A program made the position numbers and the translations under genes. The notes beneath the pieces are model-generated. The model ran no database searches, was not told the origin of the DNA, and worked only from the letters and a program-made list of their open reading frames with translations. From Marsupella aquatica (Eukaryota; Plantae; Marchantiophyta), in contig OZ316892.1 in assembly GCA_973895155.1 (NCBI GenBank), positions 19,727,869 to 19,791,868 of the forward strand: a stretch of 64,000 nucleotides of DNA. Direction: 5' to 3'. Numbering within the stretch: the first letter of the stretch is position 1; each line of letters starts with the position of its first letter. This document shows positions 23,302-52,271 of the stretch, piece after piece.

Positions 23302-23303
23302 AG

Positions 23304-25810: not shown

Positions 25811-25820
25811 CAATAAATGG

Positions 25821-28952: not shown

Positions 28953-29008
28953 ATATGTTACTTAGTTACGTATTGTATATCACCTGACTCATTGTGTGAA
29001 CTGGAGTC

Positions 29009-29018
29009 AAGGTGGAGA
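29009..29018 (+). other. Polypurine tract
   Basis: AAGGTGGAGA immediately before the 3' LTR. Confidence 0.75.
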
Positions 29019-29019
29019 T

Positions 29020-29313: not shown

Positions 29314-29873
29314 CTTGACACTGGGCTTGACACTCCTTTCAGGTCATATGCCGTAATATACACTCGTTCAATTGTTGCCCACCCTCCATGCCTACCACTT
29401 ACCGGAAGTGCATGGTGAAGTACGTAGGAGCATCCCCTTGGGACTAAGACATGGCCCAGCCTCCCACGGGAGGCTGTAGTGGGGAATCTTGGACAATGGG
29501 GGAAAGCCTGATCCAGCGATATGGTGTGAGTGAAGAAGCCGGCTCCTTCTCTTCATCATTTTGATACGCATTCCTATAACCATTTGTAGATGCATAATTC
29601 CCAGTAATTCTAACGGGGAGCACCCACCACCGGAGAGGTGGGCGACCATGAACCTCTTTGCTTCTCTGCACAGAATAGTGGGAAAAGCAACTAAAAAATA
29701 CTATTTGTTAATTTTTGACTTTTTTTTGGGTTGCTTTCCCTCAATTATAAATACATCATAAAGAATCGAATCATATGGAATGGGGCCCTAGTACTATAAT
29801 ATGGATAACTTTAGTAATCGTAAGCATATTTCCATACGCCCTGAAACAAAGGGAACCTTATGTTTCTAGAGGT

Positions 29874-30570
29874 TGTTGAGCATAGACGACATTCGCAACG
29901 GCAAGCCCATGAACCATCCAACGCACAATAGTTGACATAGAGAGATACGTGGTTCATGGGCTTGCCGTTGCGAATGTCGTCTATGCTCAACAAGTGGTAT
30001 CAGAGCATGCCTGGGAGGTGATGAGGTTTTTTCATGACGGGTTTTCCAGCGTTCATTGTCGGTGGTACATTCGGAGTTTCGTCGCATGAAACTTGAATGT
30101 GTGTGGCTGAGCGGATAGGTTAGTGAGAGGGCTTTCTAACGGTGGTTAGAACTCGTTGATTGGTATCCGTGGTGCGGAGGAATCAAAGTTTGCATCGTTC
30201 AGGGTTTATTTGTGTTCGACATTATTTTGGGGGAGAGTCCAGAGTTTGCATTTTCAACGGTGTGAGTTGTGCGGTGATCGGGAGATCGTACATTATAGCT
30301 CAAGTTGAAGGTTGACGCGAGCTGGTCATTTCGGTAGCTGGATTGTTGTCAAGTTGTTACCGAGTGCGACGTGACGAGTGAAGGAGGCGTTCAGGTTTTT
30401 TCACAAGCTATGGAGCTTATTCCCGTCTGAACCGGGTTTCTCTTTGTGACGTCCAACTCGGTGGAAGAAATGCGAAGTGCTACGGCTCAGCGGTTTGATC
30501 GCGGCGAGGCGGTCGTTTTGAGCCCGGGATTGATCAGTGATTTCACTAATTCTGGAAATTCTTTTTTCCA
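29874..30570 (+). mobile_element. Truncated LTR retrotransposon 5' end: 119-bp hairpin LTR, PBS and leader
   Basis: TGTTG...CAACA (29874-29992) followed by AG-TGGTATCAGAGC (PBS 29995-30006). No second LTR seen; right boundary is approximate. Confidence 0.6.
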
Positions 30571-30866: not shown

Positions 30867-31893
30867 TTAAATAATGATCATTGAATGTGTGTTGCTACAA
30901 AACATATTTGAGTAAGTAAGTCTACTTCCTGACTTATCAAACTTTCTATCTCGGTTGCAAGCGTCTTTAGGATACAAGTTTCTAAACTTAGAAGTAAGGT
31001 CCCTAGTTTTTAGGACTTCCCAAACAAATTGCCGCTTATTTTGCAAATATGGGCCGGAATAACCATCTCCAAGCAGACCTTTAGCAATTGAATTGATGTC
31101 ACGGTCACTCATATCCTGCACCGGTGGCAAACTTTGCACGGTATGCTTCACTTCCCAGGAAATCTTGTCTGCCGAGTGATCAAGGACAGTGAAATTATTG
31201 ACGATGCCAGCAACGCGGTGCCCCCAGGCTTGAGTGAGTCCTGCAAAGATATCACAATGCCTCCTTTGGGCTTCACCCTTATTGTAGGCGGACCATTTTG
31301 GGTAGTTAACAGTGGCTTACATGAAAGTGGAAGCAATATCTCCATCAAAAAAGTGTCGCCTCCCATGTTGTGAACAAATGGAACTGGAAACAACGTGTTA
31401 ACATTTGGATTCGCGAAACACTTTAGAGGAGAGTCATCGATGAGAACAGTATTTGTCGGACCATATCTATTGCCAAAACAATCCCAAACAGTTTGGATTT
31501 CCTTGAGAAGTATGTTTGCCTTCCCATCCGTAATATCTGACCTCAAAAAGCCAATGTCAAACGTTTCTTCTTGGGTGAATACAAACTTGAACTGCTTTCG
31601 TTCAGCATCGTTGAAAACAAGATCCATCATTTCATTTGTTCTCGGCCTTCCCGCACAAGTCCAAATCGCAACATCGTAATACCTGAAAATCACTTGTAAA
31701 AATTTGTGAAGTCCTGGACGCTCCACATACATAAATGTGTTCCCGCCCCGTCTTCCCTAGTGAATGCCGCTCACAGATGTGAGCCTCCGAAATGGTCCGG
31801 AGATTTTACTCTTTACAAAATCCAAACAAACCTTATTAAGGTAAAAAAATCAAGAGCTTTCGCTTGATCTCTGAGTGGAGTTTGGGAACAAAC
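30867..31893 (-). pseudogene. NIF/FCP1-like HAD phosphatase domain (outer element cargo), frameshifted
   Basis: KRKLLIF(fs)YLNK...YVERPGLHKFL...YDVAIWT...KEIQTVW...NTVLIDDSPLKCFANP. Contains a stop and two frameshifts. Confidence 0.75.
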
Positions 31894-32005
31894 TCTGCAA
31901 ACATAAAAATATTGAATCCGAATGGTTAGTCATTGGAACAGTCTTGACCAAAGACCATTTGAAGTCAACTAAGTCCTTGAAATCAAATACCCCGTCTGTC
32001 ACCCT

Positions 32006-33613
32006 CTACACGCGTCTCGTGCAAAAATCACTGTATTGCGGAGGAAAGCTCAATCTATTCCTGAATAGACTTAAAACGATTTCTCTCCTCTCCAAATCTA
32101 TGTCCTCTCCTGTGAAATCAAAAGGAAGGTCCAAACTACGGTAGTTCGCAAACTTCATAACGAACACACCACAATTATAGTAATCAGTTTGTCTTGGGAT
32201 GTCCTTGGGACTATGTTTTGGCCATAGAGTAGCTAAGACTTGCTTGTGACTTCTGCTTTGAATTTCATCCTCGACATATCTGGCTAAGTTTTCAAGAACC
32301 TCTGGCCTATTGTTATGCAGAGAATCAAGATATTCTAAATGCTTGTGTTCCATGTCAATCACAACTAACGCCCAATGATCGCCACCTTTGTGAATGGGGA
32401 CGAATATTCGATGACAATCAATTAAGAAATATTTCAGTCGTGAAGTCCAAGCCTCCACGGATCGGTAAGAGTAGCCATTCAACGTCAGTGCAGTATAGAA
32501 CCAAGTGTCAAACACATGGCACTTTAGAAGCTCCCTGTCGGAATGTTTATTCCTCTCCACTATGAGACTTAAGTAGGCATTTAGAATATCAGAACTTATC
32601 CAATTTCTAGGACTCAGGCACCTCATCTGTCCACGAGTTATTAGGCACCCATTAGTCATGACTAGAACCGCATCCTGATCCAACAGATCACTGAGGCAAT
32701 TGTCAATCCTCGTTTTGTTATCCATTGGATCCGGAGACGGGAGAGGACATTTGTTTATGTTTAGAAATTTATGACTTGAGACAAGAGAGAGGGAATTGGC
32801 ACATGCCTCATTGGTTGCCTCTGCACGATTGACTCGCCTCTCTGACACCTCAGGAAGATTCGCTGTGAGAGAAAATGAGTTATCATTCTCTCCTGTTACT
32901 TCAGCGCTACGAGAGTCAACATTGTCATCGCATTGAAATTCAATCGGAGTGTGATCTTTTTCCACAATCCCAACCTCCTCCACAACAATCTCTTTTAAGG
33001 GTCCACAATCCACCACCCCCTTCTCGACATCCTCGAGTGTAGTTTTTGCCTCACAATCATCAAAAACTGGGCCACTTCGAAGAACTAAAGCATCAACCAG
33101 AAGAGATTGCTCAACACCTCTGTTGCACTCTAACCCTGGAGGGTCAAACGAATTTTGAGGATCTACACGATACGTGTGTAGGGAGACATCATCCACAACA
33201 TCTTCCAAAGTTTTGTTGAACGCAATCAACCCCGTGCCCGCCTGTAAGTTTTCAGAATTATCTGCCAAACCATAACCTCCTTCAGCCATTAGAAGAGGAA
33301 ATCCTTCACGACTTGCAATTGGAACGACTGATGGACCAATTCTCATCTCCCCAATGGAACTTAGAAACTTTTCCTCCGCTTTCACCCCGACGTAATGTAA
33401 AACTGTACCGGCAATCTGATATTGCTGGCCCTCTTTTGCTCCACTAGCATTGGAGTTCTGAGTCGAACTCCCTTCAAGGCCAGGAGGTTTCCACAATGAT
33501 TTGGCGAATTGTGCAACTGGAACTAACAATTTAAGATTCTCTGCATAAGCCGTGAGGTCACAGACATCCTCACGGTCAGAGCAGAATGAAAAACACTCAC
33601 GCTCAAGCATCAA
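32006..33613 (-). CDS. Ulp1/C48 SUMO-protease domain preceded by an acidic linker (outer element cargo)
   Basis: WISSDILNAYL, FDTWFY, FVPIHKGGDHWALVVID, YLDSL, PRQTDYYNCGVF. Catalytic His, Asp, Gln and Cys are present. Confidence 0.9.
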   Translation of the reverse strand: MMLERECFSFCSDREDVCDLTAYAENLKLLVPVAQFAKSLWKPPGLEGSSTQNSNASGAKEGQQYQIAGTVLHYVGVKAEEKFLSSIGEMRIGPSVVPIASREGFPLLMAEGGYGLADNSENLQAGTGLIAFNKTLEDVVDDVSLHTYRVDPQNSFDPPGLECNRGVEQSLLVDALVLRSGPVFDDCEAKTTLEDVEKGVVDCGPLKEIVVEEVGIVEKDHTPIEFQCDDNVDSRSAEVTGENDNSFSLTANLPEVSERRVNRAEATNEACANSLSLVSSHKFLNINKCPLPSPDPMDNKTRIDNCLSDLLDQDAVLVMTNGCLITRGQMRCLSPRNWISSDILNAYLSLIVERNKHSDRELLKCHVFDTWFYTALTLNGYSYRSVEAWTSRLKYFLIDCHRIFVPIHKGGDHWALVVIDMEHKHLEYLDSLHNNRPEVLENLARYVEDEIQSRSHKQVLATLWPKHSPKDIPRQTDYYNCGVFVMKFANYRSLDLPFDFTGEDIDLERREIVLSLFRNRLSFPPQYSDFCTRRV

Positions 33614-34300
33614 TGCATTCTTTGGTACCTGCCCTCCTATGAAAAAATCCAGGACAATTTCCTCCCTCGAAGAAAATGCATGAATAAAACTCTACAGGAT
33701 GCGACTGGGCTTAATATTCAATGTGAATGGCCGTCCAGTTGTCAATTTGAAAGGAACAAGGCCTTCAAGTCGTGAGATCAATGTGTCCCTTTTTTTCTCC
33801 TGCATATCTTCCTTCAAAATATCAGAATAATCCTCTCGACTTGGCTTGATTGTCTCCTCCAGGTCGGACTCCTCCAACACAAAGTGACCGGTAAAATCCT
33901 TGAAATGCTTTTCCCAATCAGGAACCCGATCTTGGGAGACGCCAAGGAAAAGAACCATGTCCGCATTGCCTCTCATGTGTTGCAAAGGAGCATTAACCAA
34001 ATAACTCATGAACGAACCATATTCAAGGTGCGCATTATAGTTCTCCGGGAGATCTCGAATAGCTTCAATTATTCTTGCAAGAATAATACCAGGACAAACA
34101 AAAAAAACAGCTGTTACCAGATCATTTGTTGGGATATTCACGACGATCTTCAAGAAGTTCAAGATTTCGGACTGCGTCCAAACCGGTTTTCCAGTATGGG
34201 TCAAATCAACAATCGCTAGAGATGCCAATATTGACTCGCAACTAGCCGAATCAAAAGGAGGATCAGCAGATGCGAGCAGATTTCCAGTATAGAATATTCA
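33560..34300 (-). pseudogene. Degenerate beta-class N6/N4 DNA methyltransferase-like domain (outer element cargo)
   Basis: Reading through in-frame stops at 34298 and 33692 gives IFYTGNLL...SLAIVDLTH...KPSRIL*SFIHAFSSREEIVLDFFIGG...ALMLERECFSF, which resembles KP..L...I..FS..GD.VLDPF.G.G....A..LGR. Confidence 0.55.
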
Positions 34301-35044
34301 GTAAGGATCCATCCTTGCGCGGAGATGGACGCCAAACCTCTTTTGATGAATATTTCTCAACCTATTTTTCAGTGGCTCCGGCATCTCTGCTTTTAATGAC
34401 ACCTTCACAAGGCTCTTGAAATATCCAGTGTCCACCATTGCACAACAACGATCCAATTCCTCATCTGTGAAATTATATTGCTGAACTACATCACCCCAAG
34501 TTGATCCTTGCGAGAAAACCCCTTCGTACTTCTCCCGATAAAATTGAAGTATTGCCCCCTTAAGTTTGTCAGTATACTTTGCTTGTCTTGCCAATTCTGA
34601 CATGGCGGGAAGATCAGTCAAAGCATGTTTCTTTTTCATCAAAAGCGCCTCCCCCAAATTCAGTTTGTGGAGGATTTCCAAGATGTTGGATTCTACGGCA
34701 CCCTCAAAAACCCGGAATGTTGTCCCTGTCAACTGTTTTGCTTCTTTCAATTTTCCAATCATTTGTCCGGTTGAATCCAAAAGATTACCCTTGAGCCAAT
34801 TATTGCAAACCTCTCTCCATAAAGAGTAGAGCTTCTCGGGAGCAAACAAAATCCAATTGTACTCGCTGATGCTATTCACCTTTAACGTAACTTTCGCAAG
34901 TGTTTCATACTCCTGGGAGGAAAGACCAAACAACTCAAAGTTAGTCAGCTCAAAGTTTTGAATCCCAAAATACTGGAAAGGCTCTACACGACTCTCGCGT
35001 AGAAAGGAGAGAAGGACAAAGTGTCTGAATTTTGTTCACAACTC

Positions 35045-35600
35045 TCATGGAGAACCAACCTGAAATTCTGGAGATTTCCGACCCGATGGAAGTGGACGAG
35101 CTGGTCGCCCCATATCATTGTATTGCATTCTTGCATGTTTCACTTGGTCAATAAATGGAGATGAAAACCGATGTGCCTCCGCCTGAAGGTGGTTCGCGTG
35201 TGAAATTTCCACAAGAACTTTCACCGGAGTTGACCCTTTGAGAATTTGCGCTCGACGATATTTGAGCAAATTGGCTGTTTGCATGAGAGATGGTTGGGTC
35301 TTTGAACTCCGGATAATTTTCTTGGCGGCCATTGTGGAATGTTGACCACTGATGGCAAAGAACTTGAATTCCGCAAGCTTCTTGGTGTCAATATCCTTTC
35401 CCGCAAGGTCAATTAAACTCGGTACTCCGTCGATCATCTTGTAAGGAACCAAATCTGCAGGTAAAGGTTCTTGCCCTGCATTTGTCATCATCAGTTGCGC
35501 AAGATGGTTGACATGCTCCTCATTGAGGAGTCTCTCATTCATCTTTGCAGGAGGGGGATGGATGTTTTCAACCGGGACAATAAAAAAATTTGGATATCCC
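35045..35600 (-). pseudogene. ParB/sulfiredoxin-like domain (outer element cargo)
   Basis: ERLLNEEHVNHLAQLM...PADLVP...FFAISGQHSTMAAKKI...YRRAQIL matches the ParB/Srx pattern (R...V..L..S...I.DG.HR..A). Confidence 0.6.
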
Positions 35601-38568
35601 GAAACAATACCAAGACTTATTCAACTCCAATGTTTTTTCTGCAGTCTCCAGACGAGCACGGTCGACAACTAGCTTCGCGGAACTAGGGTTCTCGTCAATA
35701 TCCACATCTTCCTTATTTTTCTTTGCTTTCTTGGGCTTGCGAACGACAGCTTGAGAGGTGATGACAACCTTCTTCTCAACGTTTGGGGCCTTCTTCTCCA
35801 CGGCTCTGACCATGGGAGTTTTCACAACAATTTCAGCCGACTCTGTGGTCATCCCTTTCGCTTAGGAGGCTTTGCCCTTGATTCCACAACTACTGATTCA
35901 ACATCAAATTTTGCTTTTTTCTTTCCCTTTGGTGAAGGATCTTTTACAACTCCCTTTCGCTTCAGCGTCCTGATCTCCGGTTCGACCTTTTCAACTTTCT
36001 TCTTGACCGACGCAGATTTCTGTCCAACCCAAGACTTTTGAGACGGTTTCTCCTCCTGAGGTTTTGCTGGTGAAGCGACTTTCTTTGCATTGCTTGATTT
36101 TTGTATTCTGTCCTCGATCCCTTGCACTTCCTCGACAACTTGAATTCTCTTTTGAGAAGATGTTGCCTTTTCTTGTTTATCAACCGGAGATACATTTTTT
36201 CCACCTTTCACTTGAGGCACGACTTCGCGCTGGTTAGAAACAAGAACTCTCTTTCGAGATGGTTTCTTGTCTTCTTTTTGTTCTTCCCGTTGAACCTTCT
36301 TGCGGCCTGTTTTTGCCGCAGGCGGCTCATCTGCTTGATCAACAACTTTCACTCTCTTCCGAGGTAGTTTAGCTTCTTCTTTTATTTTCTCAAAATCAAC
36401 CTTCTTCCGGCCTAGTTTCCCTGATGGTGATTTTTCGTCCATTGCTTTTTTCTTCCCACTGGGTGTGGATGACTCTGACACAACACCAGCTTTCCCCTTC
36501 CTGGGCGAAACTCCCTTTGAAGTCTTTGCGTATCGCTTCTCTGTTGGAGGCTTTGCTGGGGGGATGACCTCATTTTGTTGAATTTCCCCACTCTTGACAT
36601 CATCGTTAATTGGTTCAACTCCACCTTCTAAACTTGTTGACTCTGACTCATTCTCTGACCCCGCCCGATTCTGAAAAGTCTTCTTGCTCTCTTCTTGGAC
36701 ACTTCCCTCCTCTCCGTCATCCTCATTTTTGGACTCATAGACTGATATCGTTTCATGGGACTTGCTCTCTCCAGAGGCGGACGAGTCATCGTTGGAGGAG
36801 TCATCCTCGTCCTTTCCCTCCCCATCATCATTGTCAATCTCTTTTCCACCAACATCTTTCTTCTTTGGGCGTACCAAGTCTTGGATTATTGGATGCCCTC
36901 GAATCCATTCCTCCACCTTTGTCTCACTGAAGTGTTTCATGAACACAACATTTGGAGAAATAGTCATCTTTCTCCTCCAGTCATCGTCTGGGATCTTCAT
37001 CCGCATTATTTGATCCACCTCTCGTGTCCGAGAGATAAAATATTCCGACTGCTTCATGACATAGGAGACCCGTCCAAGCCCCATAATTATTTCATCAGCC
37101 GTAAAGACCCGATCAGGTGAGAGCCATCTATCCGCCAAAGGATCAAAGAAACCGCATGAGACAACATTTGTGTCCTGGTTGTAAGGTTCAAGACAATGTG
37201 CTGAGCAAAACCCATGAAGTGGAGCAACCATCTGCTTGAAATTCCAAGCACTCTCAGACTCCAATGTCAGCAAAAGAGATGGGTTGTCCTTTGGGGACGC
37301 AAATCTTGTACAGTCTGCAAGAGTGCCAAAACTCACAAAGTTTCTTCGTCCATTTTCTGTTTTAACTCCCCTCACAATCAAACGGTAGTTGCCTTTGACT
37401 GGTTGCAATTCAAAAGACCATGAATTCACAGTCGCCAAAATATTCTCAAGTTTTGCGACCGTTGGAGTTTCAATCCGAAGCCTGTCAAAACGGAAATAAA
37501 CAGAGCAAACTCCTAGAAGACAAGGAGAAATATGTCAAACATCTGCACGACACTCGCGTAGAAAATAAAGTGAGCTGACAAACTGTTGCTTCATTATAAA
37601 CAAAATGATGTGAAAACATCCTTTACAAAATGGCCTCTTTGGCGTGTAAATGGTCCGGCAAAAAATGACTATCAGAACTTTGGAGATAGTCTTATGAGCC
37701 ATTTGAGCTCATCATGATTCGGAGTCAAAACAATGTCTAGATTTAAGAAACAATCCAATCCTCTGGAAACATAAGAGTTCCCTAACTCAAAGTATGCGCA
37801 CACATGTGGCCATGAAGGCAACAATTTTTCTTTTCCAATTCAATCCATCGCACTTTGGTATCCAATTGTCTTTCCCTCTCTTGGCCATCAGCCAGCTCCT
37901 GTCGCAAGTCATGAACTTGACGATCTTGAAACTTCTCCATCTCAAGAGAAGCTTTCATGGACTTTGCCGCTACGTCGCAAGTAATCAAATGCTGGATCTG
38001 TGCCCATCGATACTTTGCAAACATCTGCTCCCGTTTGTATTCCATTGCTTCCTTTTCATCCTCCAACGCTTTTTGGAGAATGGAATTCTCCATCAAACTC
38101 ATATCAAATGCATAAATACTTTTTTGTAACAATCCCTCAATCTTCTCAAAATTGTCCTTGCGATGAGCGCCTTCCTCTAGAAAAGTTGAACGAACAAAGT
38201 TACATGAACAATGTTTTGATTCCATATGGTACATATGAACGAGGATTCTACACGACAGTCGCATAGAAAACATGAGTTTCTACACGACAGTCGCGTCGAA
38301 ATCCATTATCTCCAAGATTGGAGAATCGGTTCTACGCGAGACTCGCGTAGAACTAAACAGGAAATTCTAAATTTTGACATAACGGCTCTCAAATAGAGAC
38401 TATGGGTCGATGAAAGAGACCCATTCTACACGACTCTCGTGTAGAGTAGACTCAAGTTTACCACAATCCATTGAAAATAGAGAAATTTAGGTCAGAATTA
38501 CCTTTGAGCTTCCTCAATGCAGCGAGAGCAAGTAATCCGGCGTCATTTTCTGCCAAAGAAGTCGTCAT
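35568..38568 (-). pseudogene. N-terminal exons of the outer cargo gene (coiled coil, globular region, long K/E/D low-complexity linker)
   Basis: Putative ATG at 38568. The GT-AG intron from ~38501 to ~38178 joins in frame to the coiled-coil ORF 37782-38273. An acceptor near 37481 leads into the 529-aa ORF. Frameshift near 35850. Confidence 0.5.
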
Positions 38569-39390
38569 TCCCTTCGCACGTGCGAACTCCTCCATGATAA
38601 TGTCAAGGACCGACTAGTTGAGCGAAAACAAATAGAAAACACAAATGATCCAAGGTCCGAGGTCCTTTTATACTCCAAGACGAGCATGAAAGAGCGTATC
38701 GTCCGAGGGGAGCGTGAAAGAGCATATCGTCCGAAGCGAGCGTGAAATGGCGTGAAACAATCTGAGGGCCAAGCGTGAGAGAGAGAGAGCGTGAGAGAAA
38801 GAGAGAGCAAGAGAGAAAGAGAGAGAGCAAGAGAGAAAGAGAGAGCAAGAGAGAAAGAGAGAGAGAGCGTGATTGAGAGAGTTAGACAATGAGAGTGACA
38901 GCGAGCTGGTCGGAAAGCAACATATATCGGCCCCTTCCGCGTGGAATACTGTCAAACAATGATTGCGGTTGCTACCCGGCCGCCAAACCTGATACTCGGG
39001 ACGTGTCACTAACATGGCGAACCACCACCCACCGCCAAACCAATCTGCATTTATGGAAATGACTGCTCACCACACACCACGCCGCCACAAAAAAGTACTA
39101 CACGACAATCTGGTAGAGTTGAATGTCTGAAATTCTTGCACCCCCACTCACTATATAACATGACAGACCACTTTGTGCAAGTCATTTTTTGAGACCTGAC
39201 TCATTTGTGCCTTCAGTCCGAGGTGGGACTGTCGTTAAAGCGTGCTCAGTTGTTTCAGGTACTGCATTGGTACAGTTTCTCGTACAGTTTTTCTCCTGTC
39301 ATTTTCAATTTTGTTTTAGTGATTGTGTCAGTATGTGAATGCATGTGCTTGAGTCTTTCCCATTGGGATGTGGTTTAACTGTATATTTAG

Positions 39391-40095
39391 TAGTAATCTC
39401 TATTGAATTTTGGACTTTTGATTTGCTACACGAGTCTAGTGTTGTTCCCCTGGTCTATCTAAATACAACATTCAATACAAAGTTCCTCAGATAACAAGAA
39501 TACTCATTTCAGAATATCCATCTCTCTATAGAAGTTTTAAGAGCCTACGAGTGTGTATTCAGTAGTAATCTCTATTGAATTTTGGACTTTTGATTGTCTA
39601 CACGAGCCTCGTGTTGTTCCCTTCGTCTATGCAAATACAACGTTCAATAGGAAGTTCCTATAAGAAGAATACTCATTTCAAAATATTCATCTCTATATAG
39701 AAGGTTTAAGAGCCTACTAGTTTGGATTCAGTCGTAAACTGTATTGAATATAGGACTTTGGATTGTCTACACGAGCCTCGTGTACGTTGTTCCCCTCGTC
39801 TATCCAAATACAACGTTCAATAGAAAGTTCCTCTAAGAAGAATACTCATTTCAAAATATGCATATCTGTATAGAAGGTTTAAGAGCCTACTAGTGTGGAT
39901 TCAGTCGTAATCTCTATTGAATATTGGAGTTTTGGTTGTCTACACAAGTCTCATGTTGTTCCCCTCGTCTAAGATACAATAGAATTTTCTATTTAATGAA
40001 AGAACCTTCAACTTTGTCGATGATTGTCTCCATTGCTTGTTCTGTGATATTTGCTTAGATTAGAGTTAGAGATTTTCACATGAGCCTCGTGTAGG
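39391..40095. repeat. ~172-bp tandem repeat (about 3.5 copies), each unit carrying the outer-element palindrome
   Basis: Units start at ~39391, 39564, 39733 and 39905 (TAGTAATCTCTATTGAATTTTGGACTTTTG...CTACACGAGCCTCGTGT). Confidence 0.85.
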
Positions 40096-40143
40096 CTGTT
40101 TTAAAAGATGTTTTTGTTGCAAATATTTTTCCTCAGATCCAAA

Positions 40144-41160
40144 ATGGCTTCAAGAACGCAGCTTCTACCTGGAGAAGTCGTTCACCTGCTTATCAATGAA
40201 CAACCAGTTGCTGGTGGAAAGGTTTTTTGTGTTCTACCTTCCGACACCTGCCACTCTGTGTTGCTTGGAGCAAAACGGATAAGTGTGGCGGTGGACAATG
40301 CTTTCTTTCACCTTGAACAGCTGCCGTATCCACATGCTGGAGCTGATCTAGTAGGAGAGTCGGTGAACTCCATTGTTTTGTGGGATCGGCAAGATGTCCG
40401 CCATGCAAATGACATGAATCTTGGAGGTCAAATAGAGTCAGCTTATGTCATTGATGACCCAGTTGACAATATTCAAGGTAATTCTGAATCAGCCATCGGA
40501 CTGGAGGGGACATAGGTTTTTGCGGAGGATTTGAAAGATCGTAGCACATGGTTCAAGAAGTTTGCCCTTCTCTATGCGGACGACGGAGAAACCTTGCTCG
40601 CAAGAGGTTGCATCATAAACCCACATCCTCTCGCGTCCATTAACAACGAGCGAGTTGGGGAAGATCATGTTGGTGTGAATATTTTGAGTCTAGCTATTGA
40701 AGCTGGCTTGGGAAAAGTTCTGTTCCCTCAATTTGTTGACAGATCACCATGCACAGTTTGATGGCCAATCAACAAAACTAGGATTGAGCCTAGAATGGAA
40801 TGTCTGAGTGATCTTTTAGATTGGAATGATGGTAACGATGAGGGAGTTAGAATTCTCTCATATATCAAGCCAAAAAGGGGCTATAACAATCAACGAAGAA
40901 ATCCTCAATCTTGATTCAAACAAGAAGGAGAGAAAACAACTCGAGAAAAGACGCAATCAAAAGATGTCTCGAGTGTCCATAGATACTCTTTATCGGGTTG
41001 ATTGTTGCTCACAGAGTTGTTGTCGACGACAACTCCGTGAGACCGTCACTGACATTAGGGCCCGCATTAGGGAAGAGTACTATGGTCTATCTCATGTTGA
41101 GCAACATACTTACATGCTCAATCATCTTCACTGTCGTGACGATGAAACCATCGCCTCAGG
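40144..41160 (+). pseudogene. 5' part of the outer transposase (two Tnp1/DUF8039-like repeats, then a Cys cluster)
   Basis: MASRTQLLPGEVVHLLINEQPVAGGKV...LPYP...IVLWD, a second similar repeat, then DCCSQSCC...EEYYGLSHVEQHTYML. In-frame stops at 40513 and 40759, plus a frameshift. Cut at the TSD. Confidence 0.65.
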
Positions 41161-41642
41161 GGGTATAACCACCGTGCTAGCAAATAGTAAATAGATATTC
41201 TCATACGAGCCAATTTTGCCTCGTACAAGAAATTTTTTGTCTCGTACGAGTAAACAAGTTCCTCGTATGAGCATATCTATTTACTCGTACGAGTTTCTGT
41301 TTTCTTGTATGAGTTTCTATTTTCTTGTATGAGTATTTTTTTTTCTTGTATGCATTTTAGTTTCTTCTCTTCACGGTATGTAGCGTCCATATATGCAATA
41401 ATTGTGTGGACAATATTATGGTGGGTCCCACCATTGTACAACATTAGAGGAAATTTCTCAACGATTTCACACAAGGACTCCAATATATTGCCACAAAATA
41501 TGAAGTCGAAACAAAGTCATACAATACTAGCGCCCGACGCTAGTATAGTATTATACAAAAAAACAACACTTTAAGAACTCACACTTCTGCCCATTAGAAA
41601 AGACAAACTACAATTGTAGCTGTTCAACGATCAAGCAACAGT

Positions 41643-44600
41643 CTACGTTCTCGTTCCCAACTGCCTATCAAGTATGTAACGGACTTCTCCCAACGTTAGA
41701 ATTGGCTGGCTACATAATGTTGATTCGAGCACATCCAGTTTGAACACATTCTTGAACACCCAATACACATGTTTGCAAGGCATGTAAGGCTTCCGATAAG
41801 TATGTCGACGGTAGAAATCCTCGCAAGAGCAACATGGGAAACAACATATATGAACCCAATAAGAGGCGACTGATCTCTCATGTTCATGGGTCCGGATACA
41901 AAATTGTTTCCCTGACGCATTTCCACTCGTGATCACTCTCTCTCCAATGACGCTCATCACTTCTTTTTCAGAGGCTTCAATTCTCTTCAAATGTGTTTGG
42001 GTAAGATGCACTCTTTGCAAGCATTTTTTCCCGTTCCTTGAAGCGTACCTCACAGATGGGTCAGTTAGGTTTATCCTCTCCAGGAAAAGATTGACATCAA
42101 TCTGTAACGCAGAAGGCAACGGTGCTTCGATTTCATCTCCACAGCCTTCGGAGAGAATAAGTCCTTGTTCTTTCAAAAATTGAATCTCTGCTCCAAAAAG
42201 ATTGGTCCCTTTGGCAATTGGGAGATGTGAAGGAACATTGGGAATGTTCGAGACTCCTCTCCTTGTTGTGCTTCGGTGACAGTGGTTGTTGGGGCAAAAC
42301 CATATCTGATCGTTATAAGGTTGCCCCTAAACATTCTACATCCTCTCACGGAAATTGCAACAACACCATCTGGATTCGGAAGACCAACCTTCTTTACTCG
42401 ATTTTGACATTCATCACGACTACCTCCCCGTCCAAGGGTTCTGTTACACACTGGACCCGCACCCCGTTTTGAGGTCCGACGCAACTGCCAGGCACCGGGA
42501 GGTACTTCACTTTCCATTGGGGAAACTGAATGACAATATGCAGTCTCGACAGGTGTTGCAGGCGTCACTGGTGGGACAGAGGATCTCGTTGCTCGACGCG
42601 TAGGTGTGTCAATGACCACAACTTCCTCAGAAGCATCGCTTTCTGACAAATTATGGACCGCATCAATTCCACCGGCTGAAGGCGTAGAAGGCATTTTCTC
42701 AAAATCAGTGGAATGCAGGTTTCTCCTTTTCAAACCTTTTGTATTTGGTGAAGTAACAAGGATGGTATCATGCCTGTGCGAGTCTTCTGCCGAGACGTTC
42801 CCAGTTGCATGTCCTTTTCGTTTCACCGATTGAGTTACAACATCACCATTCAATGGAACGCTTCTTTCCAAATCAAACTCAGCAGCGTTCGACAGGAGGA
42901 GATTGGTGGCTTCCTCAAAGAGACGCGGTGACCCCGCCAGGTCCGCCGATCTGAAGGCAAGCTCAAAAATAGTTGGGCCAGTTCCTTTGCTCAATCCCCT
43001 TTTGTATGCAGTATAAGCAGCAATTTGAGCAACCGCTCTATTTTGGTCCGTTTTACATCCTTCAAATAGACCAACCTTTTTTTTTCTGTTGCCATGCTTT
43101 CATTCCAGCATGCCTAGATTCCGAACCAGTACAATTAGGAATCATCCCAGCCTCTTCGGCACTCTTGCTTTGAAACGTTGCACGCAAGGGTTTAGTACAT
43201 GTAAGAAATTGCACACAAAAGTGGCAACACAATGGAAATAACAGTAGCGCCAGACGCTAATAAACTGATGATGATATTTCCATGTAAAGAACCGTTTAAC
43301 ACAGAATAAAGGTAGTCCTTACATCACTCATAGTCCAAATGGATTATTAGCGCTCGGCGCTACTATTGCAGATAAGGAACCCTTCTATCTCACACATGCT
43401 TCACTAGCGCCGAGCGCTATTAATGGGAACATGCATCCTATAGAAGTGTATAACTCACCAGTCTTATGAAGTTCCCCCATTGTCTCCATCGGACAACCCA
43501 CCAAGACAGCCACCCTTGCAGCATCCGAAGTTTGCCTGAGTGACAATTGCCAGACCTCCACCAGTCATCGATTTCCCTAGAGATTCGATATGCTTTCAAG
43601 AAAGTTGGCGCGTTCTGAAGACGATCCCACATCTCCTTGTGCTCTCCGTGCTTTCCATCTTTTACACCTTCTCGGGAATGACAATGAAAAGATTGGAAAA
43701 AATGAAAGGCATCTGATCTTTCTCGCTCTGGGTCGGGTACACCGTCAAAGAACACGTTTTGAACAGCATTCCAACCAGCCTGAGCATTGTCCGCCATGAA
43801 TCCCCAAATTGTAACATCCTGTAAACCATTTTCATCGGCAACCTCTAACATCAAACGCCAGGCTCTCTCCAGAGATTTTGCATCTTTGGCCTTTAGCTCA
43901 CAAGTGAATATGGTGCAAAGTGCCCGGTAATGATGATCATATACATGGGCACTGAAAGTAAGCCAATCTGCCGTGCTTCGATGCATCACGTCAAAACTTA
44001 CCCATGAACCCTCTAACGACCCACCAGGTTTCATTCTTTGGAGCAGGTCCAGACCACTACCGTCATCTTTTACGGTCATTTTAAAGATATGAGCACTCTC
44101 ATCCCGATAGCCTTGACCAGGGAGCAAGAACCTATGAAGAAAAGGTAGTCGGATACACTTTTGCATCCTCACAAGAAATTCCAGTTCCCCTTTCCCCTTC
44201 TGATCTTGACGGACACTCCTTAACACGGATGCAAACTTCTGAGGAGATGCGACGACCATCAGGGACTCCCAGATTTCCTTCTCTTCTTCAAGAGAGATTT
44301 CTTCAACAGAGGCCTCGCAAAATGTATTCGTCAGTGTCTCAGTCGTAGAGTTTTTAATCCCTGCTTGGGATGCCATGGGGTTTGCAGTGAATCCCTTCTC
44401 CAGATGAGACTTTGCAACCTTTTCTGCCTCCCTCAAAAAGACCCGTCGACTGGGATGATTGTGAAATCCCATAAGAACAGCTAGTCGCGACATGTGGGCC
44501 AAAGACTTAACGTCAACTTTTGCAGATGGATACATGTAGAACATTAGAGCAGGGCAGGCCTCAACGCACATCAGAGGTTCGGAGCAATGGTGACAAACAA

Positions 44601-45498
44601 CTCCACCTTCGAAGATCAATTCCCCAACTCGGAATGGGCCCGAAAGTTTTGGGGTTCTTGCCCACATCTCATTATTTCGAAAGTTGTTGTCTTTCCACCA
44701 CGGACAAGCATTATTTTGACACTGCAGCGATCCCGTACACTGGACTTTCCCGAAATCCCACATTTTCTTCGGAAGAACATTTGAAGACGTTTTCACAATC
44801 CGAGTCCAATAATAACAATCCTTACCACGATCCATATCTTTCAAACGTTCACCTTTTGCGTTCACACAGTCTACCGGGGGTAACTCAAAAACCACATTCC
44901 CATTGTAAGATGTGGGAAGACTAGGCACTACGTGATGAACAAAATCACTCCCCCTTATAAACCGAGACAATTCACTATGACCTTTGGATTTCAAGATTGT
45001 ATCCATTGCACTCTGCCGGTACACAGTCAAAGGCACAATCATTTCTCGATCCGCATTAGACTCCTTTTTAACCTCGGATGGGTAAACTGGAATCTTCTCT
45101 CCGAGAGTAGTTGTCGCTTGCTTATCATCTCCAGAACTTTCCGAGAGTTTGATGACATCGAGTTCAGCCACTGTGGGAGGACGAGTATAGGAGGCCCCAG
45201 AATCTCTCAAAACAAAAACCTCATATTCTTTCTGAGCCTCCAGAGTCCAATATCTTAGACCATGAACAACATCGTAGAAAAGTGGAGTCTCCCCCAAACA
45301 AACCGACACTAACGGCGAGATCGCTAAAATAGACTCCTTGGCGACATCAAATCTCACTCCCAAATATTCCTCTAAAACACGCTTTGATTCAGATGATTCG
45401 AGGACGGGAATTGTGATTACATCCAGAGTGTCCTTCCTTGTGACAACGATATTTTGAGCCATGGCTTCAAAAGAGGGATATGCATTTGCCCCACGCAA
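41643..45498 (-). pseudogene. MULE-type transposase: GCM/WRKY-like Zn domain, DDE core, C-terminal SWIM finger; spliced and frameshifted
   Basis: CTGSLQCQNNACP...CHHC...GFHNHP; WVSFDVMH (D1), FMADNAQ (D2), DAFH at the CxxH position. After an intron (~43455-43175) comes CTGSESRHA (E). SWIM: CSCEDF...PCKHVYWV. Confidence 0.8.
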
Positions 45499-46184
45499 AA
45501 TGAAATATGTTTATCATGAGATTCGAGTACGAGAAGTAAACGTTCCATTCTCATTATAGAGTCGTTATAGATTGGACGCACTCCATCAATGACGTTTTGT
45601 CGTCTTACCAACGGCAGGATTCGGGTTCATAGTTACTAGCACCTGGCGCTACCTCTATGTGTAAAACACCCTTGGATGAGGACTACGAATGCCAATAATA
45701 ATAGCGTCTGGCGCTACCTCTGGGTGCAAACATTCTTGGGTGAGGAGTACGAAGGCAATAAATAATAGCGCCTGGCGCTACCTATTTCAATGGACTTGAA
45801 AACATTCAATGGAAGGATAAGTACGACAACGCAATACAGTACGAGTCATTAAGTTGGCACGCTTTAAGATCTCCACTGGATCTTCGCGAATCCGATCCGT
45901 CCGGGTCCAAATGTGCCAGAGAGGAAGCGTCCACGAAAGTTATATCAGAGGGTCCTCTTCGAAGTGGGCAGCCAGGACCAAGTGCAAACTCTCCTTATAT
46001 CTAGTCGTTCTCCTCCGATGTCCTCATTGTCAAGCCATTCTTTACTGAGTCGCAGTTGTGGCTCATCTTTCGGGCGCGTGGTTCCCGTTCTCGCATTCGG
46101 GCCCAGTTGTTCTTTTTGGCTTTCGTGCGCGTTCTTGTTCTCCTTCTCGTCCTCGTTTCTCATTCTCGTCCTAGTTCACTTTCA

Positions 46185-49100
46185 ATGGCACCTCCACAGG
46201 GAAAGGCAAAGGAGGAGGCACTTGTCCCGAGTGACACCGACCGGGAGACCCCCGCATCAAATAGCTTACCGCCTCGGGACGAGAGGATGACGGTTCCAAT
46301 CTCGAAGAAGGGGAAACTCATCTCAAAGACGAAGAATGCCCCAACTATGGGACGCAGCAAAGGATCCAGTCGGCCAAATGCGAGCGGCCCAACTTCTGTT
46401 CCCGCTAGGGATATCGCCCATGCTTCAGTCGGCCGTCCAAGAGCCGACACTATCTGCACGGGAGTCTCCGTATCTTCTTCATCCACTGAGAGTGATCGTT
46501 CTTCGAGCGGGGACTCATCACCGAGCAGGCAAGGATTTGCGTGGTATGGATCGAGCGACTCGAATGACGACTCTGATGCGTACAAGCCAAGTTGGTGGGA
46601 AGACTGATTTCCCGGTGTCAGAGCGTCTCGTTTGAGTGCTGGAGAGACTTGGAGGATCCATCGAGGTTGATAGGATCTAATTCCACTCGTTTTTTTCCGT
46701 TACAAAACACATACCGTTCCTTCCTCGTATGTCGGATTTCTAGTGTATTGTAACATTTTGTATATGAACGGCACAGCCGTTCATTTTTACCCCGGTGTCA
46801 ATGCTTTTGAATTCAGAAGACCAAGCTTTAATTTTGGGTTCTACTCCCGTGTTTGCATTGTATTTCTGAATGCGAAACTGATCTATTTCTTTGAAATGGC
46901 CATAAACACTCGTTTGCTGTCAATGTTTTTACTAGCGTTTGGCGCTATTATGACAAACAAAGTGTCCATAACACTGTCGTGACATTTCTTATCTCTAAAG
47001 TGTTTTTGATAGCGTTGGGCGCTACTAATGAAAGGAATCACAAGTCAGACCCGTTTGGAGTTATTTTTACTTTTATTTCAACAAAGTCTGTTCAATTGAT
47101 GTGCATTTTAATAGCGCCAGGCGCTATTGTAATTCATTGGAATATTCGTTGAATGAATGGGTTCATGTGGTCATGTTTGTTGTCATTGGACTCCTATTTC
47201 ATCATTTATTTGGATACTAGCGCCAAGCGCTACTAAAGTTGGCTTGTTGACTCCTGCACAAAATTGGAAAATTTATAGACACTTGTGTTGATAGTACTGT
47301 CCGAAGCTACATTAAGACGGTTTTTCAGATACATTTGAAAGTATGTTGTATAATAGCGCCTGGCGCTATCCACAACTATCGACATTGATGTGGTTCCAAC
47401 GGTCACTTTCCAACGGTAATATTATAGTAGATTGAGGTTCACGGAACCCTTTTTGCTTTTGTCTGGGATGAAAGTCCAATCGGAGAATGCCATCTGTACT
47501 TGGGATTGTTGTAATCGAATGGCTGGTTCCAATGTATCGGTGTCTTAATACGAGGTGGAGATCGCTCGTTTGGGATAATTTAGTCCGTCTACGCGCTCAG
47601 ACCTTGGACTATATGAGTTTGTCAAGTGCATATGTGCGTCCTTTATTGGTCCCGTACATTTTGAGACGTGATCGTGACAAGAACTGCACGGCGCGTCCGG
47701 CAGTGCCTTTGGTCGAGTCGCTCTCCATGGCAACTTTTGGCTGGGTGATACGAGAATGGGGGAGGCTGATGGTGGTCATTTTGAGTCCTCTCAGTCTTCG
47801 TTCGCTGGTTCAGTATACACCCGTCGTGTCACTCGATCGACTGCATCCCTGTCGACTTCCGAAGCTGAATCTGCACAGCCCTTCCCGAGGTCGAGGAGAG
47901 GGAGAATGGACCCTAAGGACGTCTCCATGGGTGAAGTCAGTGACATAGGCTTATCGATAGACGAGGTAATATCAAAGCACGCATTGTCGTTCGGGAAGGA
48001 TTTTTGAGGATTCGATAAGGAGCCACCTCGAATTCCTCTTTGTAGATTGCTCCCCATGGAGGTTGTTCGAACCTTACAGAAAGAAAGTGCATCGATCGAG
48101 AAGTTGAAAGAATCATTCCGTGTCACCGGGTACAACTCGCGCATTGGGATGCCTTTCTACGTTCAGCCTGCGAATGCCGATGGGGTTTCTCAGATATGCA
48201 CCAGCAAGATCCGGGACTCTTGGGATCCAATTTGGGTCGTAGAAAATGACAAGTTTGAGGAAGAGTGTGATGCGGACCCAACATTCCATATTCTAAAAGA
48301 TAAAATGTTTTGTGTGTTTGACAGAAATCATCGATTGTACTCATGGTCAATCCTCACGAGGGAGAATCCGAACAACTTGAAGTATCATCCTCGTGTGATT
48401 TGCGTCATTTTCAATGGTGACAGAGGTTCGCTAGTTGAGCTCGAGGCGGCAATGCACACCATGAACCAATAAGTTCTATTTGTTAACTGTTGTTACCCCT
48501 GTCATTCATTTTGGACCAAACATGCTTTGCGAAAGTGTTCATTCCCCAATTTTTGCTAGCGCCGAGTGCTACTAATTCCTTTTCATTGCATCCAGGCTTG
48601 GACAAGCAGTCGTCGAGCCTTCCTGGATTCTTGACGCGGACAGAATTTCCCGAATTTTGTCGCGTGATCTTGATCACTATAAGCCACTCATCGACAGCGT
48701 GAACATGGCAAAGTTTGAGGCGATCCGAAAGAAGACGAGAAAGGGGTCTTGGTTTACACATAAAATGCCACAGGATGCTCTCATCTACATTCTGTGTGTG
48801 GACAAAATCAAGTCTTACTCAAATCAATTTAAGTCTGATATGGCTTTAGCCAAAGCTCAAGGGGCTTCTTGGTCAGAAAAGGAGACCACAAAGAGGCATG
48901 AGGCAATGATGAAGGAGGCGACCAAAGATTGGTCGATCAAAGTGACGAAGATCACCCCTTTACTTCATCCGGATTTTGGAGATTATTTGGGAACCTATGC
49001 TGAGATGTATCCCGTAACTGAGAAGAACAAACAGGAGAAGAAGCCAGACACAGTTGTATGCACAATGGATCGAGCCAGGTTGTTTACTGCTGTTTCATAC

Positions 49101-51497
49101 CTGGATCCAAAATTGAGGTGCACCCTTCTAGTAGCCCACTGCACTCCCGAGATTTGGAAACAGTTTTTCCATCCTGCAAGTGTCAACGACGAGCCTGTGA
49201 AGCAGTGGTGCCATACATGGCATACTTGGAATTCTGTGGAGGGAATTGCAACTGGAATGCTTCACACTTCTTTCAAACAGATTTCTGACCGGATGCCGGC
49301 TGACCGTCTCACAAAGTCTGGGTGTGAGTCAATGGAGGCCATGCTTAAGATCATTCTAGATGAATTCAGAAACTTTGGGGATCTTGTCAAGGCAAAATTC
49401 TTCAACAACTTGTGGCCTTCCAAATATGCGGACAAGGAAGATTACACAGAGCGGAACCGGAAGAGAGCCAAACGATATCTATACCGGTTTTACATGTGGA
49501 TGGAGCTTAGATCTCCTGACACTCTGTGGGCATACCCGGCTGCATTTCAGAAATGGGTGTCTATCGAAGAGGGAGACGCTCTTGCCGACCTGTATTCGAT
49601 GTACCCAGCGGAGGGAAAGTTTCCACCACGTTCATTGTCGGAGTGGGAGAGACTTTGTTGTCCGTGGTACCTCGACACAGACAAATGGGATTTACCGTTT
49701 GACGAAGCTGAGAAGGATGCCTTCATGAAGTTGCAGAAGTCCCAGATCCCTGCCAACTATGTGTCTGCAATGAAGCAAGGTCTCCAGTCTGATGTTGACG
49801 AATCTGCATCTGAGTTACAGAAGAATTGTGAGTCTCTTGTCATGCACGTTGACCGAAGCCGTAAGCCAAGAGCAAAGGCGAAGAATGAGTCGGCTGCACC
49901 AAGTGACTCCACAAGGTCCTTCAAGAAAAGTGAGTAGTCTAAGCGCTTTTTGGTTACTTGTTGGCGTTGCTTATGCAGGAGTTTCATTTGGAAATTCCTT
50001 TGATTAATAGCGCCTGGCGCTAGTCTGAAAGGTTGGACTCATTCAAGTTTCTGTGCCTAACAGGAGGTCCCGGCTGCCGAAGGGAAGAATGATGCAACTC
50101 CTCAGGCATCGGAGGCAAACACTGGAGCTCAAGAAACCCCGGATCAAGGGACCCCGGATGGTGCTGGCAAATCCATTGTCCCTCTTGACGCAACTAGCAC
50201 GAAGAAAAATAAAAAGAGAGGCGCCGGTGAGGATAGAGCAGCATCATCTACTCGAGACGTTATTTCCTGTGGACTCCAGAGAGATGTCGGGAATTTTAAG
50301 CGAAGGTGTTCTAGACACTGTTTTGTGGAGTCCAATTTAAACGAATTTTACGATTCGGTATTTAACAAGGGGATGAAGCCCATGTGGGTTACTAAAGTTG
50401 AGGCCTGGGGAAAGGAATTGGTAAAGTCAGGAGACAGAGAGAAGGGAGTAATGCATGGCGGAAAAGAGAGGGGCTTTGGTGTGGATGCTGGTTTCATCTA
50501 CATTCCCACTGGATTAAAACCAACACTTCTTGATCGGAAGATTCCCAAGTGGAACCTTCAGGATTACACTATTCCCAGCTCTTTCTTCCGAGCCATGGAG
50601 CCGTTCCTTGCAGACGATGGCCTACTTGCAATTTTACACAGAGGAGACTATGATCAGGTATCTGAAGTGATTGCGGCTTGCCAGGATTCTAAGTGTTTCC
50701 AGTGTATTTCAACCCACCATGTGGTCATGACTACACCAATGTATAGGCCCCGATCTGATACTCAGGTAACAATTCCTCTTGCACATACTAGCGCCCGGCG
50801 CTACTATCAGCATTCGCAATATCTACAATTCACTTATCTTTCGTAAGGATGAATGGTTGACTAGCGCCAAGCGCTAATATATGTGTATGTTTTCGTATAC
50901 TGCCTTCATTGGGAAACTGTGTTGCAGATATTCACACTTACTCTTAATATATTTTGCCGCATTTTGACAAAGGGAAGGGTCCCGAAAGACCCCAAGTTCC
51001 GGCCACTATCGAATGAAGAAGACCCTTCCGTCACTAACATTATTGGGTTTTCGTTGCCGCAACATGACCCGACTCCTGAGCTCCAATTTGCAGGAAATTC
51101 ACGATTGCCTGTGGGTTTCATGCAAACTATTTTGGAATTGGTGACTCTTCCTGGAGATATCGTTATGGACTGGACAGTAGGTTCCGGTAGTACGTTTGTG
51201 GCTGGAGATTATTCTGGTCGCTTTGTTGTTGGGCTGGAAAATCGGCCAGAGTTTGTTGATACTTCCGGTAAGGTCTTCCTTGATCTTTTACAGAACAAAG
51301 AAGTGGTTGCACCAACTCCTCCTAAGAAGATTCCTGGAAGTAAGAAGCAGGACAGGCTCCGTGCTATTCTAAATTTTGATTCGGAAGACGAGAATGAGGG
51401 TGGCAATGCTTCTCAGCAATCTAAAGATGATGAGGTGTCGAAGAATGTGGTGGACCTTGGATCTGGAGATGAGGACAGTGAAGAGTCAGAAGAGTAA
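46185..51497 (+). pseudogene. Spliced ParB/Srx-like plus beta-class N6/N4 DNA methyltransferase fusion gene (MULE cargo)
   Basis: ParB-like IPLCRLLPMEVVR...IEKLKESF...CVFDRNHRLYSW (48020-48470). MTase-like VDAGFIYIPTG...FLADDGLLAILH, then LPVGFMQTILELVTLPGDIVMDWTVGSGSTFVAGDYSGRFVVGLE. Introns at ~46670-47430, ~48470-48594, ~49931-50062 and 50766-50927. Stops at 46605 and 48005. Confidence 0.75.
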
Positions 51498-52271
51498 TTT
51501 TCTTTAGCTTTCTTTCTCTCATTGTATACTTTTTTCCAAAAAACTCCTCTACTCCCTTTTGTCTAGAAAATTCGCCCGATTTCCCGACTTCGACTAAAGA
51601 ACTCCAGTTCAAATTCTCAGGTCAGAGTAGAATCTTTGGAGGCGTTTTCAACTTTGAAGGAACGTCTCTAGGAACGTTGTACAGACCCCGGAGAAGCCAT
51701 TTGTTCTCCCCTCTTATGCTGAAAAGGCGGCACGACGGGCAGATTCAGTCAGGACGCTTACTTGGGAGAGTAAGGGTCTTAGACTCAGGAGAGGCTCAGA
51801 TAGAAAGTTTGTGCAGAATCACTTCATAGATGATATTGCAAAATCCAAGTATGTGGACGACGAAGCAGAGTCCACTGATAGATCAGAAAGTAGCGGTTCT
51901 GAATCGGGCTCAGAGTCGAGTGGTGGTTGTGGATCTGGTCTTTAGTTTTCCTTGTTTTATTTACCCGTTTATGGAGAACGACAACACTCAATAAGAACGT
52001 CGTGACGTGTCGGATTGGAGTAGCGCCCGACGCTATTACTGTAGCCGGTAGTTCAAAGAGGTTTTTATTTGGTTGTTTTCCTTATAGCGCCCGGCACTAG
52101 TATAAATGTACTCAATGGCCGCTTCACATCCAATATATGTGACAATATTTTCATACCCTTTGGTGTCTTTTTTGGGTGCACATTTGCTGGTATGAGTTTT
52201 GCTGTTTGCTGTTTACTGTTTGTTGTTTGTTGTTTGCTATTTGCTGTCACGGAGAGATCCCCCGCCTCAGG

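Follow-up and report, generated by a model that had tools for sequence, protein, structure and literature searches.

A liverwort DNA transposon with a ParB-like, methylase-fold and Ulp1 accessory gene and its own set of palindromes: a possible anti-silencing system

Introduction

To our knowledge, VANC and a few CACTA or Mutator-like element (MULE) proteins are the only factors known to shield their own transposons from silencing. According to the available text, VANC21 demethylates its own family and binds a short motif, frequently tandemly repeated, within introns, intergenic DNA and terminal non-coding sequence (PMC5735166), and KIU (KAONASHI) is described in the accessible part of a review as a VANC with a captured Ulp1 domain, the role of which is stated to be unknown (PMC13317346). 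Algal transposons offer a second point of reference. The available text on Sola1-1_Ec32 from Ectocarpus describes an accessory protein of 1104 amino acids (aa) that combines a ParB-like domain with an N4C/N6A methyltransferase (PMC12477816), and red-algal Plavaka, Mutator and Zisupton elements carry, in the part of the preprint that was accessible, genes that pair a methylase with SET or ParB with an oxygenase, next to arrays of inverted repeats (bioRxiv 2025.02.11.637652). Here, we describe a gene of similar layout in a stretch of 64,000 nucleotides (the window) from the liverwort Marsupella aquatica (GenBank GCA_973895155.1, contig OZ316892.1, positions 19,727,869 to 19,791,868, forward strand), in which a DNA transposon (the outer element) is interrupted by a MULE (the inner element). 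The accessory, or cargo, gene of the outer element, which corresponds to the minus-strand frames 30867-38595 and is decayed in this copy, is predicted to encode a ParB-like domain, a helical domain, a beta-class amino-methyltransferase fold, an Ulp1 SUMO protease and a NIF domain, in this order. We propose, at about even odds (roughly 0.5), that its product would bind palindromes scattered through the element's own non-coding DNA and strip SUMO from silencing proteins there.

The locus resembles each of these systems in part. Like Sola1-1_Ec32, to which it is likened by description, it is a giant DNA transposon whose accessory gene is read from the other strand than the transposase and has a ParB-like domain ahead of an amino-methylase; self-binding is proposed for the algal protein, and the accessible text of that paper makes no mention of Ulp1. 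Our gene differs in its length (~2275 aa), in its Ulp1 and probably NIF domains, in its degenerate motif IV and in being found in a land plant. The Plavaka genes PAG2 and PAG3 of Bostrychia and other red algae, again likened by what the accessible part of the preprint describes, also have ParB-like and methylase (PF01555) modules, which occur in unrelated superfamilies and are fused to chromatin enzymes. However, their ParB and methylase modules lie in two genes, fused to a 2-oxoglutarate oxygenase and to SET, whereas here one polypeptide combines both with a HAD domain and a SUMO protease, and the palindromes are found in introns. As for VANC and KIU, the resemblance concerns motifs that are specific to a family and lie in introns, in tandem repeats and between genes, as well as, in KIU, the Ulp1 domain, but VANC motifs are 8-9 base pairs (bp) long and not palindromic, and VANDALs are MULEs of flowering plants. 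A Pfam scan of the frames returned no match to any family named VANC; homology of the DNA-binding core is not indicated, and the likeness is probably convergent.

A preliminary description of this DNA, made from its letters, had not recognised the combination of domains. This impression has to be narrowed, since ParB plus methylase was already published as transposon cargo in algae (PMC12477816; bioRxiv 2025.02.11.637652) and Ulp1 on KIU/VANC (PMC13317346), as far as the accessible parts of these sources go. What appears to be new here is the extension by Ulp1 and NIF, together with two palindrome sets that are orthogonal to each other: the literature searched, which left most subscription papers outside, describes neither the Ulp1/NIF combination nor ParB-methylase genes on land-plant elements, and the supplements of the algal papers and Repbase may hold such architectures. 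In the parts covered, the family is also missing from a 2015 survey of eukaryotic adenine methylases (PMC4738411).

The accessory gene and its protein

The predicted gene comprises five exons and four introns, all GT-AG, on the minus strand, and would encode 2275 aa (with X at breaks). Exon 4 (32032..34912) contributes the helical domain, the methylase fold (33515..34318), an acidic linker and Ulp1 (32054..32710), and is separated by the predicted 137-bp intron 4 (31895..32031) from exon 5 (30867..31894), which encodes the NIF/HAD domain and a tail. Upstream, exon 3 (35060..37481) encodes a ~200-aa unknown domain, a long acidic then basic low-complexity linker and the ParB-like domain (35084..35584), and exon 2 (37804..38176) encodes a charged helical segment and has a weak donor, its link to exon 3 being the least sure of the model. 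Exon 1 (38502..38595) begins at the first ATG (38595, and not at 38568 where the gene had initially been placed), ends at a strong donor (38501) and is covered by no relative; 77 bp upstream of this ATG lies a TATA-like box (38666..38672, minus strand), to which a promoter function is ascribed from its letters. The ~200-aa domain at the start of exon 3 (36870-37480, minus strand) has several Cys and His and found no match in Pfam, NCBIfam, PHROG or Atlas.

The Ulp1/SENP-type domain matches Pfam Peptidase_C48 (PF02902) at 102.2 bits against a cut-off of 20.7 (expectation value, E, 4.7e-29), and its best solved relatives are SENP2 (E 4e-36), SENP1 and yeast Ulp1. Its GDHW, YLDS, PRQ and NCG motifs align with VHW, YLDS, PQQ and DCG of SENP2, and the His, Asp, Gln and Cys of these motifs are presumably the catalytic residues. 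Judged by its residues, Ulp1 is the sole domain of the predicted protein to keep its catalytic set, and it would be the only active enzyme of the protein. It is whole and in frame, and is shared by copies in sequencing runs labelled as three organisms. Ulp1 and SUMO are a textbook pair.

The methylase region was modelled on a 76-row alignment (predicted local distance difference test, pLDDT, 84), a single-sequence model (pLDDT 34) being unusable. The fold is complete and permuted, with motif IV before motif I, and compares with CcrM at Z 15.6 (root-mean-square deviation 3.7, 209 aligned residues) and with bdelloid N4CMT at Z 13.8; the top 11 of 48,161 chains are all beta-class amino-methyltransferases (Z 12.3-15.6), and the region gives a profile match to M.RsrI (E 7.8e-9). 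While this beta-class N6A/N4C fold is like that of CcrM, M.RsrI, M.MboII and N4CMT, identity to them is 12-16% and the catalytic motif IV is replaced. The motif IV strand (252-256), placed from secondary structure and not from residue-level superposition, ends in DLTH (34196-34207); the sequence [DNS]PP[YFW] occurs in 0/36 aligned rows and the motif IV aspartate is kept in 33/36. Motif I reads DFFIGG in this copy and DFFSGG in 13/23 rows. A DPPF at 34264 was considered as motif IV and rejected, as it lies in a loop and is present in one of the 78 proteins compared. From these residues, the domain is a conserved methylase fold that is likely inactive.

The NIF domain passes its Pfam cut-off comfortably (PF03031, 48.6 bits against 21.8, E 9.2e-13). 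The catalytic motif of NIF/FCP1-SCP HAD phosphatases is DxDx(T/V); this copy reads YLNK (31832-31843), with both catalytic aspartates gone, which bears out an early suspicion that the domain may be inactive. The accompanying idea that it dephosphorylates the C-terminal domain (CTD) of RNA polymerase II, as FCP1 does, found no specific support in these comparisons: the domain is nearer HAD-IIID (E 8.5e-8) and UBLCP1 (E 3.8e-6) than FCP1_euk (E 0.013), all below NCBIfam cut-offs, and its match to the Fcp1 structure has an E of 0.86. It is 29% identical to the NIF domain of a Riccia protein (P0074, E 5e-17). The ParB-like domain, which has an ISGQHS motif, is 38% identical to P0077 (E 1e-30), scores 0.92 in Atlas (on only 132 shared features) to a cluster of which 35% of the members have PF02195, and matches a PHROG ParB-like family at E 0.034, with no match in Pfam, PDB-profile or phage searches. 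Among the domains of the preliminary description, therefore, Ulp1 and NIF pass Pfam cut-offs and the methylase is upheld as a fold by model and fold search, and direct support for ParB is weak. Rather than as catalysts, the methylase fold and NIF probably serve to bind (DNA or S-adenosylmethionine, and a phosphopeptide, respectively).

How firmly these domains belong together varies along the gene. From the ParB-like domain to Ulp1, they are very probably spliced as one gene. The C-terminal half of the methylase and Ulp1 share one open frame (32009-33691), as had been noticed early on, and the Pfam methylase stretch crosses the stop 33692-33694 into the Ulp1 frame. At the other end, P0077 (1009 aa, unnamed) follows model aa 763-1432 through the ParB intron without loss of colinearity (E 4e-80), and P0053, P0015 and P0067 also cross the position of the ParB-methylase intron unbroken, ParB-like and methylase domains being a single polypeptide in relatives. 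An acceptor at 34973 was dropped for 34913, which gives a protein colinear with P0077.

Ulp1 is probably spliced to NIF. The strong acceptor at 31895 lies where the preliminary description had placed it, and the fusion itself rests on the predicted intron 4. The TAG that closes the Ulp1 frame (32006-32008) is overlapped by an element palindrome inside this intron (better matched in other copies, position 32024), and one annotated protein of Riccia sorocarpa, R1sor_016354 (KAL3690045.1; P0074), combines the methylase family with NIF. A fusion is likely because the stop sits in an intron-type palindrome and because P0074 fuses methylase and NIF. P0074 resembles the cargo gene in having DLTH, a DFFSGG methylase, an acidic linker and then NIF, but it is an automatic gene model and, unlike the cargo gene, has neither Ulp1 nor ParB. 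Exons 1-2 are more likely than not part of the gene, with the TATA-like box and the strong first intron in favour. The single multi-enzyme gene originally suggested hence survives as a single gene, well supported from ParB-like to Ulp1 and likely as regards NIF, in which only Ulp1 keeps its catalytic residues.

This is a real gene that is dead in this copy. Exon 3 has two frameshifts (35850/1 and 35581), exon 4 two in-frame stops (34298-34300 and 33692-33694) and exon 5 a frameshift (31844), a stop (31757-31759) and a net 31-bp loss (31311-31325); the model keeps the three stops and otherwise has no further break. Other copies were examined in contigs of five public runs (X1 to X5), four of which share 0.47-0.49 of words and in which contig depth is no measure of copy number. 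The frame-break comparison used X1, X2, X4 and X5 (12/65 indel rows and 40/830 substitution rows considered) and the stop-codon comparison X1-X4 (all 37 rows). The main contigs have an extra base at 35850/35851 in three of four runs, one base fewer at 35581 in all four and at 31844 in the three covering runs, and 44 letters instead of 13 at 31311-31325 in three of four (X5 having little cover), each of these four differences joining neighbouring frames. Stop 33692-33694 is CAG in 3/3 covering runs and stop 34298-34300 is CGA in 4/4; both stops are C-to-T changes, as expected from methylcytosine decay. Six of the seven breaks are thus private to this copy, in agreement with the joins through 34298, 33692 and frameshifts that had been drawn by eye. 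The seventh, which the preliminary description did not mention beside these two stops, is the TAG at 31757-31759 inside NIF, probably a lesion and not an intron. A 75-bp intron that would remove it fits in GT-AG and phase but would excise the strand after YLNK. Separately, a minor joint in X1 and X4 leaves out 32032-32627, which is almost all of the Ulp1 domain, and has short CAG homologies at its borders (weak, with a side of 30 letters), and further joints in the copy contigs correspond to internal deletion derivatives.

Among 1.84 billion representatives, 73 are relatives of the middle region (E up to 0.001), and the five that are named come from the liverworts Riccia sorocarpa and Calypogeia fissa and the fern Ceratopteris richardii. 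When 75 relatives were scanned, 15 matched the methylase family, one NIF and none Ulp1 at E up to 0.01. Seven (P0002, P0003, P0014, P0035, P0038, P0059 and P0077) end in another, unnamed conserved tail, which suggests that the C-terminal module is exchangeable and the core shared. This tail covers the C-terminal 100 aa or so, has GP..KG and EYGSF-like motifs and found no Pfam match. Word-based searches for long fused relatives came back empty for the Ulp1 region (983-2805 aa), for the helical-methylase region (861-2455 aa) and with alignment A3 (1578-4505 aa), which is weak evidence in each case, and two metagenome scans did not find the locus.

Element-specific palindromes

The outer element is strewn with a 21-bp palindrome (A, TCTACRCGA-nnn-TCGYGTAGA, up to four mismatches) between 32005 and 55112. 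All 19 copies lie in its 14.5 kilobases (kb), some of them in a 171-bp tandem array (39380-39971), while the inner element and 37.6 kb of other DNA have no copy at all. The inner element has a palindrome of its own (B, TAGCGCC-n-RGCGCTA), found 18 times there and absent from the outer element, with one further copy in the partial second inner element at the end of the window. In 20 resampled windows, A and B gave 0.1 and 0.3 hits on average. Within the cargo gene, palindrome A has seven hits in 931 bp of intron (in 4/4 introns) versus one in 6828 bp of exon. Overall, 17/19 copies of A and 18/18 of B are non-coding (binomial p about 1e-6 and 6e-8, which is optimistic, the enrichment being partly circular since one and the same DNA supplied both the consensus and the exon limits). 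The copy of A nearest to the mapped left end is 1.5 kb from it.

The inner element also has its own ParB-methylase-like gene (about 47900-51497, plus strand; Pfam methylase E 5.2e-8), whose introns contain palindrome B. It reads IYIPTG at the motif IV position and DWTVGSGST at motif I, and the ParB label is our reading of a DRNHR motif. In a direct comparison, the outer and inner ParB-methylase genes showed no significant similarity.

Proposed function and its alternatives

In the mechanism that we favour, (i) the core made of ParB-like, helical and pseudo-methylase domains would read the palindrome as a dimer, (ii) it would bring Ulp1 to every copy of the family, (iii) Ulp1 would remove SUMO from silencing or chromatin proteins at those copies and (iv) NIF would add a binding surface. 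The purpose would be anti-silencing in trans, as for VANC/KIU, a role argued by analogy with the VANC/KIU layout. Counter-silencing had been raised in the preliminary description, and it gains a new argument from the element-specific palindromes in non-coding DNA; the part that invoked CTD dephosphorylation has no specific support.

A number of points weigh against this proposal. For the algal ParB proteins, too, self-binding is no more than a proposal of the papers. ParB/Srx N-terminal domains usually have an arginine-rich motif, GxxRxxA; the ParB identity of our domain is weak and this motif is absent, [IV]SG[QA]HS being found in 4/4 sequences that include the motif region. Ulp1 occurs in 0/75 relatives, though only 16 exceed 450 aa. 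The gene is spanned by no single contig, the joining evidence being site by site, and the other copies have frameshifts and deletions of their own, no intact copy having been seen. A 14-site comparison with a divergent copy gives four synonymous changes and does not indicate purifying selection (this copy's own changes give 5/14, and both counts are too small for use). For intron 4, the donor ACA/GTGATT is mediocre, 2/5 GTs before the stop fit the phase in any case, and an in-frame ATG directly precedes the NIF exon. Finally, there is the partial circularity of the palindrome statistics.

The alternative that survives best is that the same gene serves transposition, the palindromes being transposase or transpososome sites, the cargo protein bridging or loading like TnpA of CACTA elements and Ulp1 de-SUMOylating the transposase. 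The palindromes, which would suit a dimeric binder, also lie in the transposase's neighbourhood and introns, and with transposases as unrelated between the two elements as the palindromes are, the transposase could be the reader; a preprint describes, in its accessible part, a MULE transposase that itself activates sequence-specifically (10.64898/2026.08.24.746577). We nonetheless find this unlikely, as the motifs are found far inside the element, within cargo introns, and this type of helper goes with unrelated transposases both here and in algae. Transposase sites are usually subterminal.

It is decidedly unlikely that the transcript ends at TAG 32006 and that NIF is a separate captured gene or fragment, leaving a helper made of ParB, methylase and Ulp1 only. 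Ulp1 does have a stop of its own, the donor and the ATG before the NIF exon fit this scheme, and palindromes follow stops elsewhere too (54586 and 41528). However, the ~100 bp from the stop to NIF are too short to accommodate a promoter, the acceptor is a strong one, the stop falls within an intron-type palindrome and P0074 fuses methylase and NIF.

Could the methylase instead be active with a non-standard motif and write N4-methylcytosine or N6-methyladenine as a self mark on element copies, Ulp1 and NIF being secondary? Such a role has been proposed in papers for the algal relatives, and the complete fold, with its motif IV aspartate (33/36) and DFFSGG (13/23) kept across liverwort and fern relatives, would agree with it. 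Amino-methylases use two prolines and an aromatic residue in motif IV, but these are found in 0/36 rows, and motif I lacks the usual FxGxG spacing, which makes this improbable. Least of all do we credit a neutral, Pack-type accretion with Ulp1 and NIF as recently captured passengers without a role, for while the 0/75 relatives with Ulp1, the want of a selection signal in 14 sites and the minor joint that skips 32032-32627 in two runs (its side only 30 letters) go in that direction, Ulp1 is whole, in frame, with its catalytic residues in place, and shared by copies from runs labelled as three organisms, and NIF recurs with the methylase family in Riccia at 29% identity.

The two nested elements and their surroundings

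The outer element is a multi-copy DNA transposon with a DUF7869-like transposase. Its left end (30533..30560) was mapped through other contigs with different flanks: at 30533, a high-depth repeat is cut off and the main contigs begin. In contig depth, this repeat (30300-30532) exceeds the element several hundredfold; no continuation of it turned up in the window. A search for the right end of the outer element did not locate it, the best candidate being a 10-bp match (56260-56269) without duplication. The transposase (40820..54576, plus strand) is recognised by HDKMDQ, LQLDNS and GHTHEDVD, has three stops and is split by the inner element; its match to DUF7869 (E 0.092) is below the cut-off. 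The cargo gene lies on the opposite strand, divergent from it. Sola1-3 are only listed in the accessible part of PMC4455052. In general, Sola1 elements have a Sola-type transposase, terminal inverted repeats and a 4-bp target duplication. Two short frames of the outer element (40105-40515 and 55503-55998) have no Pfam match and are possibly further decayed accessory genes.

The inner element (41161..52262, 11.1 kb) looks complete, lacks long inverted repeats and encodes on the minus strand a transposase with a SWIM-like tail. It is flanked on both sides by a 9-bp target duplication, CGCCTCAGG, which, counted once, restores the outer transposase frame (881 codons with three stops). The left end of a second copy lies at 63193-64000, 95.6% identical over 817 bp and with a different flank.

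To the left, a Copia long terminal repeat retrotransposon (23008-29313) is a very recent insertion, given that its 294-bp repeats are 100% identical and its gag and pol frames open, and a perfect 44-bp inverted repeat with a 33-bp spacer (29873-29993) lies between it and the outer element. To the right, a CACTA-like terminus near 56100 and a 705-bp tandem array (57140-60043) probably represent another element (56100-60043). The window, which is nuclear DNA of a plant, also contains F-box/Kelch, Skp1 and L-gulonolactone oxidase-like frames.

Concluding remarks

A wider and more tentative view, which we regard as possible and no further than that, is that liverworts and ferns have a second anti-silencing system apart from VANC, built on a ParB-pseudo-methylase reader of bacterial origin that would recognise intron palindromes as ParB does parS and would carry exchangeable effectors, in this case a SUMO protease and a pseudo-phosphatase. 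The two nested elements would then be orthogonal reader-palindrome pairs, and the capture of Ulp1 would independently repeat the path from VANC to KIU.

The algal ParB-methylase helpers have been proposed to offer transposons the same protection. In the window, there are two candidate pairs of reader and motif whose palindromes are exact and exclude each other, so that the idea lends itself to a direct test. Epigenome work in bryophytes would also gain a tool from an anti-silencer that acts sequence-specifically. Should two unrelated anti-silencing proteins each have captured Ulp1, SUMO may be a general weak point of transposon silencing in plants.

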